Shown: piece by piece, positions 56,106 through 64,000 of the stretch
Layout: the number at the start of each line of letters is the position of its first letter
Numbering within the stretch: the stretch's first letter is position 1
Notes under the pieces: model-generated
Seen by the model: the letters and a program-made list of their open reading frames with translations, nothing else
The model's database searches: none
Told to the model about the DNA's origin: nothing
Assembly (NCBI GenBank): GCA_964532325.1
Contig: CAZHGS010000013.1
Coordinates: forward strand, 3,396 to 67,395
Length of the DNA stretch: 64,000 nucleotides
Reading direction: 5' to 3'
Origin: an uncultured Gemmatimonadaceae bacterium
GTDB lineage: Bacteria; Gemmatimonadota; Gemmatimonadetes; Longimicrobiales; Gaopeijiaceae
Made by a program: the position numbers and the translations under genes

Positions 56106-56703
56106 CCCGGACTGCTCCCCACGGCACACGTCGGGAGGCACAGTATCGACGCCACAGAGGGTCGAACGGCTCGCGAACGTGCTGGTCCCGCCGCATCCCG
56201 AGCCGGGAGGCTCGACGCGCGCCGTCTGCGCCTGCACACCGAGACCGACATGGCGGCCACGCGGGTCGCGACGGATCACGAGACGGCTTGGGAACGCAAC
56301 GTCCAAGATGTCCATGAGCAGAATCTCAGCTGCGATGTGATCAGCCCCGATCCGCGCCCGGTGAGCTGCGGTTGATCGGGGTCAAGGGGCTCGCCGTGCC
56401 CGGCGGAAACATCCTTCTTCCGCGAACGAGCGCTGCGTGGCCGACGACCGCCCCGATTGCTACCGGAGGTAGGTCGTGACGAATGGCGGGGACCACCGGG
56501 ATTCACAGGAACCGATCAGAATCCCGCCCGGTTCCCGCGGGAGCGCGTCGGGCGTAGCGCGAGCACTTCCGGAGTGCTGGAAACAACGACATGGCGGGCT
56601 TACGCTGTATCGTCATCGCTCCTCCTGTCCTGAAGCGGCCATGTTGTTGGACGAGAACGATAAGGAGACGTCCCCGGGCCGGTGCTCTTACCCGCGGCGA
56701 GAG

Positions 56704-57567
56704 ATGCAGGCCCGCCGGGCTGCCGAGAAACCCCGGTGTGTCGTATTCGTCTTCGTCAAGGCACCCGTTCCCGGCCGCGTCAAGACCCGCTTGGCCTCAG
56801 CGCTGGGCAACATCGGGGCGGCCCGCCTCTACCGGGCGCTCGCCCGCCGGATCGTCCAGCGGGTGGGAACGGGGGAGTATCGCACGGTCGTCTACTTCGA
56901 CCCTCCCGGGGCCGAGAAAGACATCCGGGAATGGCTGGGAGCGGAATGGGAGTACCGGCCGCAGCCCGGGGGCAACCTAGGCGAGCGGCTCCGCCGGGCC
57001 TTCGCAGTCGGCTTCCGGGAGGCTGACTGCGTCGCGGTCGTCGGGACCGACATCCCGGAGCTGGACGCGCGGGTGGTCGTCCGCGCATTCGATCTGGTGT
57101 CTGGACCCGGGAGTGCCGATGTGGTCTTCGGCCCTGCCCTCGACGGAGGATATTACCTGTTAGCGCTCGACCGGCCAGCACCCGGACTCTTCGAGGGGAT
57201 CGCCTGGAGCACCGGGACGGTCCTCGCGGAGAGCATCCGGAGGGCGGAGGATCTCGGTCTCAATGTCAGGCTTCTCGATCCTCTTGCCGACATCGATCGC
57301 GAGGAGGATCTCACCGGTGAGCTATCAGCCGAGCTTCTCCTCGACTCGCCGGACCCGTCGCAGGATAGCGACGATCCAAGCGAACAGGATAACCCAAGCG
57401 AGCGCATAGGCGATGAAGACGTGCCAGAAATGGCGCATTTCGAGCCGGGTCGCCTCGGGCATCTGGGCGACGAGGCCGCCCGGCGCCAACCAGATGAGCG
57501 CGGTGACGGCCAGTCCGGCCAGGAGCCGCACACATCCGGTCGGCCGCAAGAGCGCCTGCCCTCCTGA
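56704..57567 (+). CDS. DUF2064 protein of the rSAM/selenodomain-associated transferase 1 type (TIGR04282-like), with an acidic C-terminal tail
   Basis: VVFVFVKAPVPGRVKTRLA, GNLGERL, VGTDIPEL, GPALDGGYYLLAL, WSTGTVL. Alternative ATG at 56641. The domain ends near 57300, but the frame stays open to 57567. Confidence 0.7.
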   Translation: MQARRAAEKPRCVVFVFVKAPVPGRVKTRLASALGNIGAARLYRALARRIVQRVGTGEYRTVVYFDPPGAEKDIREWLGAEWEYRPQPGGNLGERLRRAFAVGFREADCVAVVGTDIPELDARVVVRAFDLVSGPGSADVVFGPALDGGYYLLALDRPAPGLFEGIAWSTGTVLAESIRRAEDLGLNVRLLDPLADIDREEDLTGELSAELLLDSPDPSQDSDDPSEQDNPSERIGDEDVPEMAHFEPGRLGHLGDEAARRQPDERGDGQSGQEPHTSGRPQERLPS

Positions 57568-57615
57568 AACTAGCTTCAGCACGTCCATATTCTCCTTGGA
57601 TCGACGGGACCGCAC
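57325..57615 (-). CDS. ccmD: CcmD-like small membrane protein (heme exporter protein D)
   Basis: Directly downstream of ccmC. The C-terminal half MRHFWHVFIAYALAWVILFAWIVAILRRVRRVEEKL has the CcmD pattern (one TM then a basic stretch). The true start may be internal (57465 or 57438). Confidence 0.55.
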   Translation of the reverse strand: MRSRRSKENMDVLKLVSGGQALLRPTGCVRLLAGLAVTALIWLAPGGLVAQMPEATRLEMRHFWHVFIAYALAWVILFAWIVAILRRVRRVEEKLG

Positions 57616-57623
57616 GTGCGGCG

Positions 57624-58313
57624 TCAGCCCCCCTCCAGTACTAGGTTGTCCACCTTCGACTCGAACCGCCCCGCCGTGTACCGAAGGAGGATCAGTGACG
57701 CCAGCAGGATCGTCCAGGCCAGGAGAGCCATCATCAGGGTGATCAGCATATCGGGCGGGAGGGCGGGGCCGTCCTGGCGTGCGACTACCGGCTCCGGGTG
57801 TAGAGAGCGGAACCAGAGTACGCTCACATGGATGAGCGGGATGTTCACTGCGGCCACCAACCCGATCACCGCGGCATACATCTTCCCCTTCTCGGGGTTG
57901 TCCGTCGCGTTACGGACGAGGAGGTAGCCGATGTAGATGAAGAAGGCGAGGAGACTCAGCGTAAGCCGGGGCTCCCAAGTCCACCACGTCCCCCACGCCA
58001 GTCGGGCCCACAGCGGCCCGCTGGTGAGTCCGATCGCAAAGAAGACGATCCCCCCCTCGGCCGCGGCTCGGCCCACCTCGTCGAGCCGGTCGTCACGGAG
58101 CCAGAGATACATCGCGCTACAAAGCGCCACGACGATGAAGGCGAGGAGACCGCTCCACATCCCGGCAACATGGATGTAGAAGATGCGCTGGCTGATCCCG
58201 AGGGTAGCCTCAGTTGAGACCCAGAAGAAGACCATCCAGTGAAATACGAGGGTCAGCGCGACGCCGAGGATACCGAGCGCGAGCGCGCTCCAGCGAATCG
58301 AGCTGAGCGTCAT
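57624..58313 (-). CDS. ccmC: Heme exporter protein C
   Basis: ATG 58313 (1-nt overlap with the ccmB stop). W-rich motif WARLAWGTWWTWEPRL and conserved His residues (FYIHVA, IHVSVLWF). The track ORF is over-extended to 59150. Confidence 0.9.
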   Translation of the reverse strand: MTLSSIRWSALALGILGVALTLVFHWMVFFWVSTEATLGISQRIFYIHVAGMWSGLLAFIVVALCSAMYLWLRDDRLDEVGRAAAEGGIVFFAIGLTSGPLWARLAWGTWWTWEPRLTLSLLAFFIYIGYLLVRNATDNPEKGKMYAAVIGLVAAVNIPLIHVSVLWFRSLHPEPVVARQDGPALPPDMLITLMMALLAWTILLASLILLRYTAGRFESKVDNLVLEGG

Positions 58314-58993
58314 TATTCCTCCACGATGTAACGGAAGAGCGCCATCCCGCACGCGAGGGCGAGGAGCGAAAACGCCGCCAAGAGCCTCAAACTGCCATAA
58401 ACCGTTGTGGCAGGAAAGCCCGCAAGGAGCGTCGATGTCGCGGACGCGCCGAAGACCACCAGGGGGACGAGGAGGGGGAAGAGGAGCACCGGAAGGAGCG
58501 TCTCGCCCATCCGGGTGCCAGCCGTGATTCCGCTGAAGAGCGTGCCCAGCGAGACGAACCCGACTGTGCCGAGACCGAGAACGGCCGCGACCGGCAGGCC
58601 GTTGGGGATGAAGTTGACCTGGAAGAAGAGCGCGACGGCGAAGAGCGCGATCACCTCCACGGCTGCTAGAAGGACGCAGTTGGCCACCACCTTCCCGAGA
58701 AAGAGCGCGTCCCTCCGGACCGGGGCCACGAGCAGACCCTGCATCGCCCCGTCTTCCTTCTCGAGCTCGAATGTGCGGCCAAGCCCGAGGAGCCCGCCGA
58801 GCACGATGATCATCCAGATGAGCGCCGAGGCCAGGTCCTGCGGGCTCACGACCGTCCAGTCCACCGCATAGTTGAAGAGGAGGGCGCTCAGGACGACGAA
58901 GGCGGTCATCGACGCGAAGCGCTCGCGGGTGCGGAACTCGACCCGCAGGTCCTTGGCTGCGAGTGCCCGGACTTCCGCGAGGTAGCTTCTCAC
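58313..58993 (-). CDS. ccmB: Heme exporter protein B
   Basis: Six TM segments, FRTRERF and L.APV.R..LFLGK-like blocks. GTGA overlap with ccmA. Confidence 0.85.
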   Translation of the reverse strand: MRSYLAEVRALAAKDLRVEFRTRERFASMTAFVVLSALLFNYAVDWTVVSPQDLASALIWMIIVLGGLLGLGRTFELEKEDGAMQGLLVAPVRRDALFLGKVVANCVLLAAVEVIALFAVALFFQVNFIPNGLPVAAVLGLGTVGFVSLGTLFSGITAGTRMGETLLPVLLFPLLVPLVVFGASATSTLLAGFPATTVYGSLRLLAAFSLLALACGMALFRYIVEE

Positions 58994-59790
58994 CGGACGC
59001 CGACCGCGCCTTCCCGCTCCGTGTCCTGGCGGAGCGAGGATCCGGCCGGCCCGCCGCCATCCGACCCGGAGGACGGACCGGTGGGACGCTCCACGGCATC
59101 CCGGTAGAAGCGCTCCTCATCACCCGCGGGGATCTCGGACGGATCGCCAAGAAATGCGAATCGGCCGTGGTGCTGGATCGCCACCCGGTCGGAGAGGGCG
59201 AGGCCCTCGGAGAGGTTGTGGGTCACTAGGATCACCGTCCGCCGACCATCCTTCAGCCGGGCTAGGACATCTCTCAGGAGCGCGGACGCGTGTATGTCGA
59301 GTCCGGTGAACGGCTCGTCGAGGAAGATGAGCGCCGGGTCGTGAAGCAGCGTTCGCGCCAGCGCGAGCCGCTGGCGCATCCCCCGGGAGTATTCCCGGAC
59401 CCACCGATCCGCCGCCGCTTCGAGCCCCACCCCGGCGAGACTCGCCTCGATCCGCTCGGCGAGGTCGGCAAGACCGTAGATCCGGCCGAAAAAGGTCAGG
59501 TTCTCCCGGGCCGTGAGTGCGCCGTAAAGCCAGGTGCGGTGGGAGAGAACCCCGATCTCCCGCCGCCACTCCGTCGCCCCGGCGTCGCGGAGCTCTCCCC
59601 GGAACCGGATCTCGCCCGCCTGTGGCCGGAGCGATCCGCCGAGGAGGCCGAGCAGCGTGCTCTTGCCCGCCCCGTTCGGACCGAGCACGGTGAGCAGCTT
59701 GCCCTCGTCGAGGGAGAAGGAAATCCCGTCGACGGCCCGGATCGGGCCGAAAGTGCGGACGAGGCCCCGGGCCTCGAGGAGCGGCTCCAC
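58990..59790 (-). CDS. ccmA: Heme ABC exporter ATP-binding protein, with about 50-aa C-terminal extension
   Basis: GPNGAGKSTLL Walker A, SRGMRQRLALARTL signature region, IFLDEPFTGLD Walker B. Position in the ccm cluster. Confidence 0.85.
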   Translation of the reverse strand: MEPLLEARGLVRTFGPIRAVDGISFSLDEGKLLTVLGPNGAGKSTLLGLLGGSLRPQAGEIRFRGELRDAGATEWRREIGVLSHRTWLYGALTARENLTFFGRIYGLADLAERIEASLAGVGLEAAADRWVREYSRGMRQRLALARTLLHDPALIFLDEPFTGLDIHASALLRDVLARLKDGRRTVILVTHNLSEGLALSDRVAIQHHGRFAFLGDPSEIPAGDEERFYRDAVERPTGPSSGSDGGGPAGSSLRQDTEREGAVGVR

Positions 59791-59793
59791 GCC

Positions 59794-60309
59794 TCAGCCA
59801 CTCCCGACAGACCCGCGAACGGCCCGATCTGCGGGCGACCCCGGAACCGGGAGCCTCGAGCCGCAGTCCCCGCAGTAGCGGCTGCCCTTCGGATTCGGAC
59901 TCCCGCACTGGGGACAGATGACACCAGCACGGATCGAGTCCCGCAGCGCGGCAATCTCCGCCTCGAGAGCGGCCCTTGCCCCCGGAGGCGGCTCTCCCTC
60001 CTCCCGCTCCGGGTCCGCGGGCTCCGCGTGGCGCGCCAGCCACTCGGCTTCCTCCTCGTCGATCGCCCTGAGCGCCTCGGCCGAGATCTCCTGCTTCAGA
60101 CGCCCATAGTCCGCCGCGTCGAGCTTTCCGGCATGGAAGTCGTACTCGACATCCCTCAGCGCGAGAAGCGCCACATTCCGCCGGTGCTGCGCCTCGGTCA
60201 GTTCCTCCTCGTCCCACTCCATCTGGGCCTCAAGTCCAGAAACGATCGGGTAGAGGACGAAGACGACCATCGCCAGAGCGAGGATCACGCCCGGAACGAG
60301 AGCGCTCAT
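59794..60309 (-). CDS. Membrane-anchored coiled-coil protein with CcmI-N-like segment and C-terminal zinc ribbon
   Basis: ATGA overlap with the ccmF stop; its own stop lies 3 nt before ccmA. N-terminal TM (GVILALAMVVFVLYPIV). HRRNVALLALRDVEYDFHAGKLDAADYGRLKQE resembles the CcmI N-terminal region. CPQCGSPNPKGSRYCGDCG is a CxxC-x10-CxxC ribbon. Confidence 0.65.
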   Translation of the reverse strand: MSALVPGVILALAMVVFVLYPIVSGLEAQMEWDEEELTEAQHRRNVALLALRDVEYDFHAGKLDAADYGRLKQEISAEALRAIDEEEAEWLARHAEPADPEREEGEPPPGARAALEAEIAALRDSIRAGVICPQCGSPNPKGSRYCGDCGSRLPVPGSPADRAVRGSVGSG

Positions 60310-62393
60310 CCCAGCGTCGCGGCAGCGTCCGATCGCGGGGTGGGGGCGGGGGTGGAGGTGTCCCGTCGCTGGCTCCCGGAGCCGAGCCGGCTTGTCCGGG
60401 TGGGGACGCCCGCGCCGGGCCAGAGTCCGATCAGCGCGCCGGCGGCGATCACGAGTCCGCCGTACCAGATCCAGGGGACGAGCGGATTGATCTGGAACTG
60501 GAAGGTGGCCCGCTGGAACTCCGGTTCATTGCTTCCCAGAAGCACTTCGTCGTCGACCGTGGCCAGGATCAGGTAGAGGTCCTCGACAAACGTCGAGCGG
60601 ATCCCCACCTCGCTGATCGGCTGCGGTGGCGAGACGGCGAGGTTCAGCTGGCGCTGGGTCGTGATCGAGCCTGCGGGCACCCCATCCTTCTCGACCGAGA
60701 AGAGCGCGATCGCCTGCCGCATGCTCGGGACGAGCGTCGTCGAGAGCCCCTGGTAGGTGAGGACATACTCGTGTCCGAAGGGGGAGTCCACCGCGACGCT
60801 GTCGCCCGGTACCATGCTCTGGCGTACCTCGCGGTTGAAAGCGCTCCCGGCAAAGCCCATGAACATGACGACGACGCCCACGTGCACGATGTAGCCGCCC
60901 CAGCGGCGACGGTTTCGCCTGACGAGATGCACGAATGCGGTGAACGCGTTCTCCCGCTCGATCCGGGCCCGTGCCCGTGTCCCCTTCCAGAACTCGACGA
61001 CGATGACCGTGAGCACGAATGCGCCGATCGAGAAGGTGAGAAGGGCGTAGGGGTGGCGCACTCCCGCAGAGAAGAGCACGGCCGCCGTGGAGACGAAGAC
61101 CGCGACGGGCAGGAGGAAGTTCTTCTTCAGGTTCCGCGCGCTCGCCTTCCGCCACGCGATCACGGGACCGATCCCCATCAAGGCGAGGAGGATGAGGCCG
61201 ATCGGGATGTTGACCTGATTGAAGAAGGGCGGTCCGACAGCCACCTTCGAGCCGGTGAGCCCTTCGGTCAGGAGGGGGAACATCGTGCCCCAGATCACCG
61301 CGAAGGCGGCACCGAGAAGAACGAGATTGTTCAGCAGGAAGGCAGATTCCCTCGAGAGGGCCGACTCGAACTGCCGCTCGCTCACGAGCACCGGGTAGCG
61401 CCAGACGATAAGGACGAGGCAGACGGCGCCCGTGATCCCCATGCACCCGAGGAAGATCCACGCGATCGTGAGGTTCTGGGCGAAGGAGTGGACGGACTCG
61501 ATCAGCCCGGACCGGGTCAGGAAGGTCGCGAAGATCGTCATGAGAAAGGTCAGGAGCACGAGCCCCATGTTCCAGACCTTGAGCATCCCCCTGCTCTCCT
61601 GGATCATCACCGAGTGCAGGAAGGCGGTGGCCACGAGCCAGGGAAGCAGCGAGGCGTTCTCGACCGGATCCCAGAACCAGAACCCGCCCCAACCGAGCTC
61701 CTCGTACGCCCACCGCATCCCGAAGATGATGGCGAGGGTGAGGAAGAACCAGCTTGTGAGGATCCACTTGCGGGTCGCCTGGATCCAGCGAGCGTCCAGC
61801 CGTCCGACCATGAGCGCGCTGATCGCGAAGGCGAATGGCACGTTGAACGAGGTGAACCCGACGTACATCGTCGGCGGGTGGATCGTCATCCAGTAGTTCT
61901 GGAGCTGCGGATTCAGGCCCCGCCCGTCGGCGGGCGTGAAGCCGAGCTGCTCGAACGGCGGGGTGACGAAGAGGGAGATCGAGATGAAAAAGCCGATGAA
62001 CGCCAAGAGAACCCCGTTCATGTACGGCATGAGGTCGCGGTTACGCGAACGGTTCATCCACACCGCGAGCGAGGAGAAAAGGCTCAGGTTCAGCCCCCAG
62101 AAGAGGAGCGAGCCCCGCTGGCCGGCCCAGAGTCCGGCGAACTTGAAGAACGGGTGGAGATTCGTGCTCGAGTAGTTGTACACGTACCAGTACTGGAACT
62201 GGTCGCGCATGAAGGCGGTGATGATCCCAATCGACGCGATCACGAAGAGGATCGAGATCGCGTATGTGCTGCGCTCGGCCGAGAGGACGAGGTCGCCCCG
62301 GTTCCAGCGCCCGCCCAGGAAGGCGAGCACGCAACCCCAAATTGATATGGGCAGGGCGATCCAGAGTGCGAACTCGCCCAGCGCGGGGATCAC
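60306..62393 (-). CDS. ccmF: Cytochrome c heme lyase subunit CcmF
   Basis: 695 aa and polytopic. WWD motif WGGFWFWDPVENASLLPWL. Conserved His residues flank it. Confidence 0.9.
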   Translation of the reverse strand: MIPALGEFALWIALPISIWGCVLAFLGGRWNRGDLVLSAERSTYAISILFVIASIGIITAFMRDQFQYWYVYNYSSTNLHPFFKFAGLWAGQRGSLLFWGLNLSLFSSLAVWMNRSRNRDLMPYMNGVLLAFIGFFISISLFVTPPFEQLGFTPADGRGLNPQLQNYWMTIHPPTMYVGFTSFNVPFAFAISALMVGRLDARWIQATRKWILTSWFFLTLAIIFGMRWAYEELGWGGFWFWDPVENASLLPWLVATAFLHSVMIQESRGMLKVWNMGLVLLTFLMTIFATFLTRSGLIESVHSFAQNLTIAWIFLGCMGITGAVCLVLIVWRYPVLVSERQFESALSRESAFLLNNLVLLGAAFAVIWGTMFPLLTEGLTGSKVAVGPPFFNQVNIPIGLILLALMGIGPVIAWRKASARNLKKNFLLPVAVFVSTAAVLFSAGVRHPYALLTFSIGAFVLTVIVVEFWKGTRARARIERENAFTAFVHLVRRNRRRWGGYIVHVGVVVMFMGFAGSAFNREVRQSMVPGDSVAVDSPFGHEYVLTYQGLSTTLVPSMRQAIALFSVEKDGVPAGSITTQRQLNLAVSPPQPISEVGIRSTFVEDLYLILATVDDEVLLGSNEPEFQRATFQFQINPLVPWIWYGGLVIAAGALIGLWPGAGVPTRTSRLGSGSQRRDTSTPAPTPRSDAAATLG

Positions 62394-62860
62394 CCGATCA
62401 ACCCCCCGTATCCGGCGCCGGCGCCGGCCTGCTGCGGCATCTCGGGCATCGCCTCATAGCGCGAGCCGCACTTCGTGAGCACCTCGGTGGCCTCGAAGAC
62501 TCCATCGGGTCGGTAGCGTCCCTGCATCACGACCTCGACCTCGACCTCGCCCGAGTCGTCGAAGGTGTCCGGGAGCGGATGGCGGAATTCGACGGCCATC
62601 CGGACGGAGGTGTCGTCCGGATCCTCCACGACGAAGGTGTGCAGCAGCTCGTCGGTCGAGTTCGCGTAGCTTCCCGGAACCAGCATCCCGCTGACCTTGA
62701 CCCCCTGGTCGCGCGTTTCGGGACTCAACTCGACGCGCGCGAGGAGCTCGGCGGGGGTCAGATAGTAGACCATCGTGTCGGAGATCCCCGTGTAAATCAG
62801 GTAGCTGACCACCGCAGCCACACCGACCAGACCAGCAAAGAACCTGCGATCTCTACGCAT
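62390..62860 (-). CDS. ccmE: Heme chaperone CcmE, CxxxY variant
   Basis: ATG 62860. N-terminal anchor (FFAGLVGVAAVVSYLIY), YYLTPAEL, OB-fold-like core. C-terminal LTKCGSRYEAMPE has Cys where canonical CcmE has the heme-binding His of HxxxY. Confidence 0.85.
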   Translation of the reverse strand: MRRDRRFFAGLVGVAAVVSYLIYTGISDTMVYYLTPAELLARVELSPETRDQGVKVSGMLVPGSYANSTDELLHTFVVEDPDDTSVRMAVEFRHPLPDTFDDSGEVEVEVVMQGRYRPDGVFEATEVLTKCGSRYEAMPEMPQQAGAGAGYGGLIG

Positions 62861-62933
62861 GGGACACTCCTCGGAAGGATCCGCGCGCCATCGGGTTCGA
62901 GCACGGGGAAAATACGGGGTCGCCGACCGCCGC

Positions 62934-64000
62934 TCAAGCCGACCCGGACGGGCCTTCGCCAGCGGGGACCGGCACCCCTGCGAAACGCCTCGCCGCACGG
63001 ACGGCGCGCCGCCAGCCGGCGAGAAGCCCTGCCCTCTCGTTCTTCCCCATTCCGGGAAGAAAGGTCCGCCCTTCCCGCCGGCGCGCGAGGAAGTCTCCGG
63101 GGCGCCAGAGCCCGGCGCTGAGCCCCGCAAGCCCGGCCGCGCCGAGGACTGTCGTCTCGGCCGTCGCCGGCCGGCGCACCGGGATGCCGAGGACATCTGC
63201 CTGGAATCCCATGAGCCAGTCGTTGCCGGAAGCGCCGCCGTCGACACGCAGCTCCGTCGCCTCCCGTCCGCAGTCGAGCGCCATCGCCTCCAGGACCTCG
63301 ACCGTGCCGTAGGCCATCGCCTCCAAAGCGGCCCGGGCGATGTGCGCCGGGGTCGTGCCGCGCGTCAGGCCGAGGATCGCACCCCGGACCTCCGGATCCC
63401 AGTGCGGCGCGCCGAGTCCGACGAAGGCAGGCACGAAGTAGACGCCCTCGTTCGTGGCAAGCGACCGGGCCATCGCCGCCGACTCCGCCGCCGAGCCGAG
63501 GAGGCCGAGCCTGTCGCGCAGCCATTGGAGCGCCGCGCCCGCGATGAAAATGGAGCCCTCGAGCGCGAAGGCCCGCCCGCCCGTCGGGCTGCAGGCGGCC
63601 GTCGAGAGGAGCCCGTGGCCCGACCGGGCTCTCTCGTTTCCGGTATGGAGGAGAAGGAACGCCCCCGTTCCGTAGGTATTCTTCGCGAGCCCGGCCTCCC
63701 AGCACCCCTGTCCGAAGAGCGCCGCCTGCTGGTCACCGGCGATCCCCGTGATCGGCGCCTCGATCCCGAGGAGGCCGCCGTCAGCGACGCCGAAGTCGCC
63801 GGCGCTCGGCCGGATCTCGGGGAGGAGAGCCGCCGGTACGCCGAAGAGCGCCAGCAGCTCCTCGTCCCAGGCACCCCGATCGAGGTCGCAGAGGAGAGTG
63901 CGCGACGCATTCGTGGGATCGGTCGCGTGTACGCGGCCACGGGTGAGCGCGTGTACGAGCCAAGTATCGATCGTTCCCGCAGCCAGGTCTCCGGACTCCG
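62934..64000 (-). CDS. glpK: Glycerol kinase (5' end outside window)
   Basis: My own translation shows the frame open from 64000 down to the stop at 62934. GTIDTWL, ITGIAGDQQAALFGQGC, KNTYGTGAFLL, EGSIFIAGAALQWLRD, VYFVPAFVGLGAPHWD, LRVDGGAS. The track only lists the part after an internal Met (62934..63473). Confidence 0.9.
   Translation of the reverse strand, partial: ESGDLAAGTIDTWLVHALTRGRVHATDPTNASRTLLCDLDRGAWDEELLALFGVPAALLPEIRPSAGDFGVADGGLLGIEAPITGIAGDQQAALFGQGCWEAGLAKNTYGTGAFLLLHTGNERARSGHGLLSTAACSPTGGRAFALEGSIFIAGAALQWLRDRLGLLGSAAESAAMARSLATNEGVYFVPAFVGLGAPHWDPEVRGAILGLTRGTTPAHIARAALEAMAYGTVEVLEAMALDCGREATELRVDGGASGNDWLMGFQADVLGIPVRRPATAETTVLGAAGLAGLSAGLWRPGDFLARRREGRTFLPGMGKNERAGLLAGWRRAVRAARRFAGVPVPAGEGPSGSA

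Follow-up and report, generated by a model that had tools for sequence, protein, structure and literature searches.

The 64,000-nt stretch of contig CAZHGS010000013.1 (assembly GCA_964532325.1) analysed here, called the window and numbered from its first letter throughout, carries on its minus strand, between positions 57325 and 62860, a cluster of seven co-directional and mostly overlapping open reading frames (ORFs) in the order ccmE-ccmF-X-ccmA-ccmB-ccmC-ccmD-like, where X stands for the gene of a 171-aa protein. We conclude that this cluster is very probably the single, functional cytochrome c maturation system of the organism, a member of the Gemmatimonadota (Longimicrobiales), and that it represents the Cys-type variant of System I (System I*), in which the haem chaperone CcmE has a cysteine in place of the haem-binding histidine. 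The core genes are recognised by profile and by structure alignments: ccmE (62390-62860), for the 156-aa chaperone, scores 74 bits with PF03100, and its product aligns to the structures of E. coli, Shewanella and D. vulgaris CcmE; the 695-aa haem lyase encoded by ccmF (60306-62393) matches PF16327 with 189.8 bits and PF01578 with 122 bits; ccmA (58990-59790; 266 aa), the ATPase of the haem-handling ABC complex, matches PF00005 and reaches 129.1 bits with TIGR01189, for which the cut-off is 131.6; the membrane subunit CcmB (58313-58993; 226 aa) is found by PF03379 (106 bits) and TIGR01190 (63 bits), and CcmC (57624-58313; 229 aa) by TIGR01191 (134.6 bits) and PF01578 (84 bits). All seven frames are intact, and the seven-gene cluster, its order and its junctions, which a sequence-only reading of this DNA had put forward, stand when the ORFs, the profile matches and the junctions are read directly.

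CcmE has an OB-fold domain behind its N-terminal membrane anchor, ends in ...EVLTKCGSRYEAMPEM and is the sole PF03100 match in the genome. Read from its codons, the motif C131-G-S-R-Y135 (62456-62470, minus strand; TGC at 62470-62468, TAT at 62458-62456) confirms the CxxxY that had been proposed where canonical CcmE has HxxxY. Aligned with HMMER, K-C131-GSRY falls opposite K-H130-DENY in the CcmE of E. coli (8CE8, 1SR3) and in that of Shewanella (1J6Q), and opposite the TKC in the Cys-type CcmE of D. vulgaris (2KCT); a Cys out of register with E. coli His130 had been named beforehand as grounds for abandoning the idea, and Cys131 does align with that residue. All 120 of the closest homologues, down to 56% identity, have C[GAS]SRY, and the homologues of 156 aa cover 100% of the query. 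Those that bear a name are labelled Gemmatimonadota, Gemmatimonadales or Longimicrobiales, and the closest named loci, at 87-94% identity, come from Longimicrobiales metagenome-assembled genomes (MAGs). From a wider search, over about 15 billion proteins reduced to one representative per 50%-identity cluster, we took the 150 nearest clusters: 129 of the 130 readable motifs are of the Cys-type and one is HAEEY, the other 20 clusters being fragments without the motif. CPSKY accounts for 61 clusters, CGSRY for 21, CASKY for 18 and CASRY for eight, besides other Cys forms, and the nearest named proteins from outside the phylum, at 35-39% identity, belong to Thermodesulfobacteriota, Dadabacteria and MAGs labelled 'Deltaproteobacteria'. 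An independent switch from His to Cys within the Gemmatimonadota was considered as well, but with Cys-type motifs in almost all of the nearest clusters it was rejected; to judge from these comparisons, the CcmE is a member of the established Cys-type group.

The 3.0-Mb genome is a MAG made up of 64 contigs and estimated to be 87.9% complete. A second ccmE or a System II, either of which had been seen as a possible alternative, was searched for throughout the assembly, and the search returned one ccmE, one ccmF and no ResB. Three proteins match PF01578, namely CcmF, CcmC and a HemX-like protein of 269 aa (L007:1492-2301, plus strand; contig C7:39102-39872). The gene of the latter was considered as a System II ccsA and rejected, its neighbours being hemB and hemA and no ResB having been found; its product has no obvious WWD motif and is probably a regulator of haem synthesis, not a cytochrome c lyase. 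The best match to ResB (PF05140) in the genome, of 11.1 bits, lies inside ccmF, and ResB exceeds the cut-off in just one of 31 genomes of the family, those without it including complete single-contig genomes. A reading in which the cluster is a redundant or decaying copy, the real work being done by a canonical His-type System I or by a System II elsewhere, could draw on the eighth or so of the genome that is unseen, but it would have to accommodate a single CcmE, a single CcmF and no ResB in the assembly, the near absence of ResB from the family, and a locus with no broken frame, with start/stop overlaps and with an order kept in 33 related loci; we consider it highly improbable. A sole, working System I* also has its clients. 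The many haem c proteins anticipated by the sequence-only reading are present, as 20 ORFs of the genome encode at least two CxxCH motifs, including four octahaem cytochromes and one pentahaem cytochrome c7-like protein; two of the multi-CxxCH proteins match Pfam multihaem cytochrome families, and one dihaem protein is encoded inside the window. Multihaem genes lie at C3:15027-16997, C3:53494-54777, C16:43839-45944, C39:12988-15024 and C2:157884-158480. Three of the four octahaem cytochromes are paralogues of about 650-700 aa with a common C-terminal non-haem domain, and the pentahaem cytochrome c7-like protein, of 177 aa, resembles the ActA subunit of alternative complex III.

The arrangement of the cluster resembles that of translationally coupled operons in its start/stop overlaps. 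The reading frames of ccmE and ccmF overlap by 4 nt (GTGA), as do those of ccmF and X (ATGA); X and ccmA are separated by a gap of 3 nt, ccmA and ccmB share a GTGA overlap, and ccmB and ccmC overlap by 1 nt (TAATG). A GAGGAG precedes the ATG of ccmE at 62860. Of 45 loci with the label Gemmatimonadota or Longimicrobiales, 33 show the order E-F-X-A-B-C-D, the others being truncated or having one gene under the BLAST threshold, and the position of ccmA before ccmB is conserved in relatives. Scans of positions 57000-63200 returned no promoter-like site and one terminator-like site, which lies inside ccmF and is below what is expected from shuffled sequence.

The lyase and the haem-delivery proteins support the same assignment. 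CcmF aligns with the Thermus thermophilus protein (6ZMQ) over 660 residues (E = 2.9e-93), has the WWD motif WGGFWFWDPVEN and is the sole PF01578 protein of CcmF size in the genome. Its best NCBIfam match is to NrfE (TIGR03145, 407.9 bits), with the general CcmF/NrfE model close by (TIGR00353, 402.8 bits), as might be expected if the protein were a specialised NrfE-type lyase for an unusual haem motif, for example CxxCK, and not a general lyase. The cut-offs of the two models, however, are 927 and 569, both far above the scores, so that these do not discriminate; moreover, this is the only CcmF-type gene of the genome, it is part of a full ccmE...D operon and not a neighbour of nrfA, and the many CxxCH cytochromes require a general lyase. 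A specialised lyase thus seems scarcely credible, and we take CcmF as the general haem lyase of the System I* operon. In the alignment of CcmC with the E. coli protein (7F02), equivalents of the haem ligands His60 and His184 are present; the WWD motif reads WGTWWTWEPR (residues 107-116; 57966-57995, minus strand), with Glu114 (57972-57974) at the position of Asp126 of E. coli, and the WEPR form is kept in six genomes of the family.

The last gene of the cluster encodes a CcmD-like small membrane protein with the conserved core MRHFWHVFIAYALAWVILFAWIVAILRRVRRVEEKL. It runs on the minus strand from an ATG at 57588 to 57325 (87 aa), the ORF being open to a GTG at 57615 (at most 96 aa), which places its start 35 or 8 nt, respectively, from the end of ccmC. 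The ATG is the likelier start, since an AAGGAG stands 5 nt before it. The 87-aa protein has an extra N-terminal hydrophobic segment, and, of 21 family genomes, 20 have a homologue with the core xRPYWHVFxAYAxAWLLxxGWVxSIARRL immediately behind ccmC. As to the surroundings of the operon, the 3' end of a glycerol-kinase-like gene lies upstream and a convergent DUF2064 gene downstream. The DUF2064 ORF (56476-57567, plus strand) has its first stop at 57567; its last 80 or so residues are of low complexity and extend past the end of the Pfam domain (near residue 246-280), and this tail overlaps the ccmD-like gene in antisense over about 243 nt (57325-57567).

The gene between ccmF and ccmA (X; 59794-60309, minus strand) had been left anonymous by the sequence-only reading; its 171-aa product passes, if narrowly, the NCBIfam model for the N-terminal part of CcmI (TIGR03142; 29.8 bits, cut-off 29.3), matching positions 7-83 of the 118 of the profile, and it is the only protein of the genome to do so. 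X has one N-terminal transmembrane (TM) helix, the segment RDVEYDFHAGKLDAADYGRL, a helical region DVEYDFHAGKL, an acidic linker and a C-terminal CxxC-x11-CxxC zinc ribbon, to which the Pfam zinc-ribbon models PF13240, PF12773 and PF24463 match. It has no second TM helix, with one hydrophobic segment only, and the profile search gave no match to tetratricopeptide repeats (TPR); X therefore cannot be a full CcmI. From its domain composition, X is best described as the N-terminal module of CcmI without the TPR domain, joined to a zinc ribbon, and, by analogy with the topology of CcmI, its bulk, zinc ribbon included, should be cytoplasmic. A search of 151 genomes of the phylum matched the protein in 118, CxxC...CxxC is present in 119 of 120 homologues, and in every complete related locus X lies between ccmF and ccmA. 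In 22 of 31 loci from Thermodesulfobacteriota, Dadabacteria and 'Deltaproteobacteria' (L109-L140), the gene next after ccmF likewise encodes an X-type protein; the order there is ccmA-B-C-E-F-X, and, besides a TM helix and an acidic linker, these proteins have DIEFDYGLGKL as their helix and a zinc ribbon (FCSKCGAKL). Public annotation names some of the homologues CcmI.

That the system lacks ccmG and ccmH, as had been claimed, holds for the cluster and for the window: no credible frame of the 64 kb contains WCxxC or LRCxxC, and neither CcmG nor CcmH is encoded there. It does not hold for the genome, which has a CcmH-family gene on another contig (C1:94204-94782; L002:1456-2037, minus strand), unlinked to the ccm operon. 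Its product, of 193 aa, scores 42.9 bits with PF03918 (cut-off 25). It begins with a signal peptide, continues with a periplasmic domain and ends in a C-terminal membrane anchor with a conserved tail, RLRSAIRDIELSEDPSF. When aligned to P. aeruginosa CcmH (2HL7), the ELRCPKC of the latter pairs with RLYSPFC, which implies that the first active-site Cys is replaced by Ser and the second is kept, with a further Cys eight residues on. This pattern, S-P-[FY]-C-x7-C, is found in 118 of 119 complete homologues, and CxxC in none of 120. A phmmer comparison with the PDB is marginal (E = 0.68), and the AlphaFold model, with a predicted local distance difference test (pLDDT) score of 93-97 over residues 51-110, has a three-helix periplasmic domain; the top PDB matches of this predicted structure in Foldseek are 2HL7 and 2KW0 (probability 1.00, TM-scores 0.63 and 0.59, root mean square deviation 2.6-3.2 Å). 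The homologues share a nearly invariant His-Pro right after the signal peptide and, behind the membrane anchor, the strongly conserved tail RLRxAIREIELSEDPSF; to our knowledge, neither is a feature of canonical CcmH. In passing, a MAG labelled Gammaproteobacteria (L072, JAHEKL010000271.1) carries a CcmE and a CcmH-like protein (P0242) that are 81% and 95% identical, respectively, to these Gemmatimonadota genes, which most likely reflects wrong binning or labelling of that public record.

Within the family, the CcmH relative is fixed between carB and the gene for an M24 peptidase. Two sister families of the same order (represented by G097 and G106) have the SPFC-x7-C subtype between ccmF and X (order F-H-X-A-B), and in other orders of the Gemmatimonadota that place is taken by a relative with five Cys (RCPCPCG...TC...C), for example RCPCPCGLDVFTCRTTDFTC in L052-L054 (G102, G131, G147), and also in L049. 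In those orders, the SPFC type often occurs in addition, as an unlinked copy, and the two paralogues coexist in many of their genomes; in this genome and family, only the two-Cys SPFC-x7-C protein is present, outside the operon, and there is no five-Cys CcmH. A lineage free of CcmH had been suggested by an empty protein search in one genus (g2) and was dropped, PF03918 being over the cut-off in five of five g2 genomes. Homology, together with the synteny in other families, suggests that the CcmH-like protein may take part in maturation. Alternatively, the system may run without any CcmH, CcmABCDEF and X being sufficient and the unlinked CcmH-family protein doing something unrelated to cytochrome c maturation or being in the process of loss. 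Such an economy has precedents, since the D. desulfuricans System I* is functional in E. coli with neither CcmH nor CcmG (PMC3601427) and archaeal CcmABCEF suffices (PMC9084895), and it would agree with a gene that in this family stands outside the operon and has no CxxC. The protein does not show the decay that loss would bring, however: 118 of 119 homologues retain S-P-[FY]-C-x7-C, many other positions are invariant and the C-terminal tail is conserved; throughout the family, the gene stays between carB and the M24 peptidase gene; G097 and G106 carry the same subtype between ccmF and X; and PF03918 matches over the cut-off are found even in the genus in which the protein search had failed. 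We therefore regard a CcmH-free system as rather unlikely and favour a role for the divergent CcmH in the maturation pathway.

Other candidates for the thiol branch are also encoded away from the operon. CcdA is present (PF02683, 54 bits), and a membrane-anchored redoxin with WCVPC is found at an unlinked locus (PF00578, PF08534). This redoxin is the best match of the genome to CcmG/DsbE (TIGR00385), with 47.8 bits against a cut-off of 123.15, for which reason we call it TlpA-like and not CcmG.

How does this system compare with those already described? The Cys-type variant, System I*, is said to have been defined by Allen in 2006, with the absence of CcmH as part of the original definition, and was reportedly shown to work by Goddard in 2010. 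The aligned Cys, the Tyr at +4 (rarely a Phe in the variant), the grouping with Cys-type proteins and an intact CcmABC and CcmF are all found here, whereas CcmH is not lacking, given the PF03918 protein on contig C1. Lack of CcmH is, in any event, not characteristic of the Cys-type, as about one third of Cys-type bacterial genomes have CcmH, and CcmI enhances maturation by System I* and is not required for it (PMC3601427). The match to the Cys-type variant known from archaea and Desulfovibrio, drawn in the sequence-only reading, is sound (PMC3601427; PMC9084895). With the Desulfovibrio System I*, whose operon order and CcmI we take from the 2011 review by Stevens et al. (PMC3601427), the present system shares a Cys-type CcmE with a Tyr four residues on, adjacent ccmE and ccmF with ccmABCD alongside, a CcmI-type accessory gene, and an operon without a CxxC CcmH or a CcmG. 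It differs in its motif, which is KCGSRY and not the predominant CPSKY, in the SPFC-x7-C CcmH-family protein kept elsewhere in the genome, and in its host, Gemmatimonadota (Longimicrobiales) being absent from the delta-proteobacteria, chloroflexi and firmicutes listed in that review (PMC3601427). Methanosarcina acetivorans CcmABCEF likewise has a CxxxY CcmE, in which the Cys is needed for haem-stainable CcmE and for cytochrome maturation; archaea, however, lack CcmD, CcmH and CcmI and have scattered genes (Gupta et al. 2022, PMC9084895), whereas here the core forms one operon, and CcmD-like, CcmI-N-like and CcmH-family genes are present. With System I of E. coli (8CE8, 7F02, 1SR3, 2KW0), CcmA, CcmB, CcmC, CcmE and CcmF are homologous and align end to end, and the WWD motifs and His ligands are conserved; the differences are His130 to Cys in CcmE, Asp to Glu in the WWD motif of CcmC, LRCxxC to LYSPFC...C in CcmH, a CcmI without TPR and second TM helix and with a zinc ribbon, and no CcmG equivalog.

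From homology to the systems of E. coli, Desulfovibrio and Methanosarcina, we infer the following pathway. CcmC, through its WWD motif and two His ligands, would offer haem to the periplasmic OB-fold domain of CcmE, which would capture it via Cys131, with Tyr135 as an axial ligand. ATP hydrolysis by CcmAB, possibly assisted by the CcmD-like protein, would then release holo-CcmE, from which CcmF would take the haem and join it by thioether bonds to the CxxCH motifs of apocytochromes exported by the Sec route. CcmF is the most likely docking partner of X; in Rhodobacter capsulatus, CcmI reportedly docks on CcmF through its N-terminal membrane segment. The apocytochrome/thiol branch would be encoded elsewhere, the divergent CcmH (SPFC-x7-C) having moved out of the operon in this family, and CcdA together with the membrane-anchored TlpA-like thioredoxin may supply the reductant.

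Several points weigh against the identification of the cluster as the sole, functional Cys-type system. All NCBIfam equivalog models for CcmE give at most 48 bits, with cut-offs of 126-310; these scores neither confirm nor refute, and identity was assigned from Pfam and the PDB alignments. The CcmD-like gene is under both CcmD cut-offs (TIGR04391, 17.0 bits against 24; TIGR03141, 14.8 against 25.95), X passes its model by just 0.5 bits, and the CcmH-like gene is unlinked, between carB and the M24 peptidase gene. The MAG being 87.9% complete and in 64 contigs, a second system may lie on unassembled DNA. The covalent nature of the Cys-haem bond is itself disputed, binding being reported as covalent in D. 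desulfuricans and as non-covalent in D. vulgaris (PMC3884852). Lastly, the experiments demonstrating that Cys-type systems function come from D. desulfuricans (PMC3601427) and M. acetivorans (PMC9084895), that is, from outside the Gemmatimonadota, and their bearing on the present operon is by analogy.

The sequence-only reading also held that the cluster extends the distribution of the variant. It does so insofar as the phylum was not among the hosts listed in 2011, and we found no paper that links Gemmatimonadetes and CcmE in substance; the extension is modest, however, all 120 closest homologues having C[GAS]SRY and the named ones belonging to the Gemmatimonadota group. The features specific to the lineage are the KCGSRY motif, the relocated two-Cys CcmH and the zinc-ribbon CcmI-N protein. 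The latter two are, from sequence comparison, the only parts with some prospect of novelty, the operon in itself being an expected housekeeping system. Tentatively, and as a possibility that we hold to be less probable than its contrary, the Longimicrobiales, and more widely the Gemmatimonadota, may differ in the apocytochrome-handling half of System I, with a distinct third layout that combines a Cys-type CcmE and CcmF with an SPFC-x7-C CcmH and a zinc-ribbon CcmI-N. If so, a CcmH with Ser for the first Cys and with a new Cys would imply a thiol chemistry unlike that of LRCxxC, and X would link the lyase to something cytoplasmic, with no periplasmic chaperoning of apocytochromes.

Gemmatimonadota are common in soil and sediment and rich in multihaem cytochromes, and our analysis places a Cys-type Ccm system in this phylum. 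The Cys-type CcmE of this lineage does not go together with a loss of CcmH; it co-occurs with remodelled relatives of CcmH and CcmI. These remodelled proteins offer natural material for studying the part that CcmH and CcmI play in haem attachment, and also the way in which a Cys-haem adduct of CcmE is resolved.

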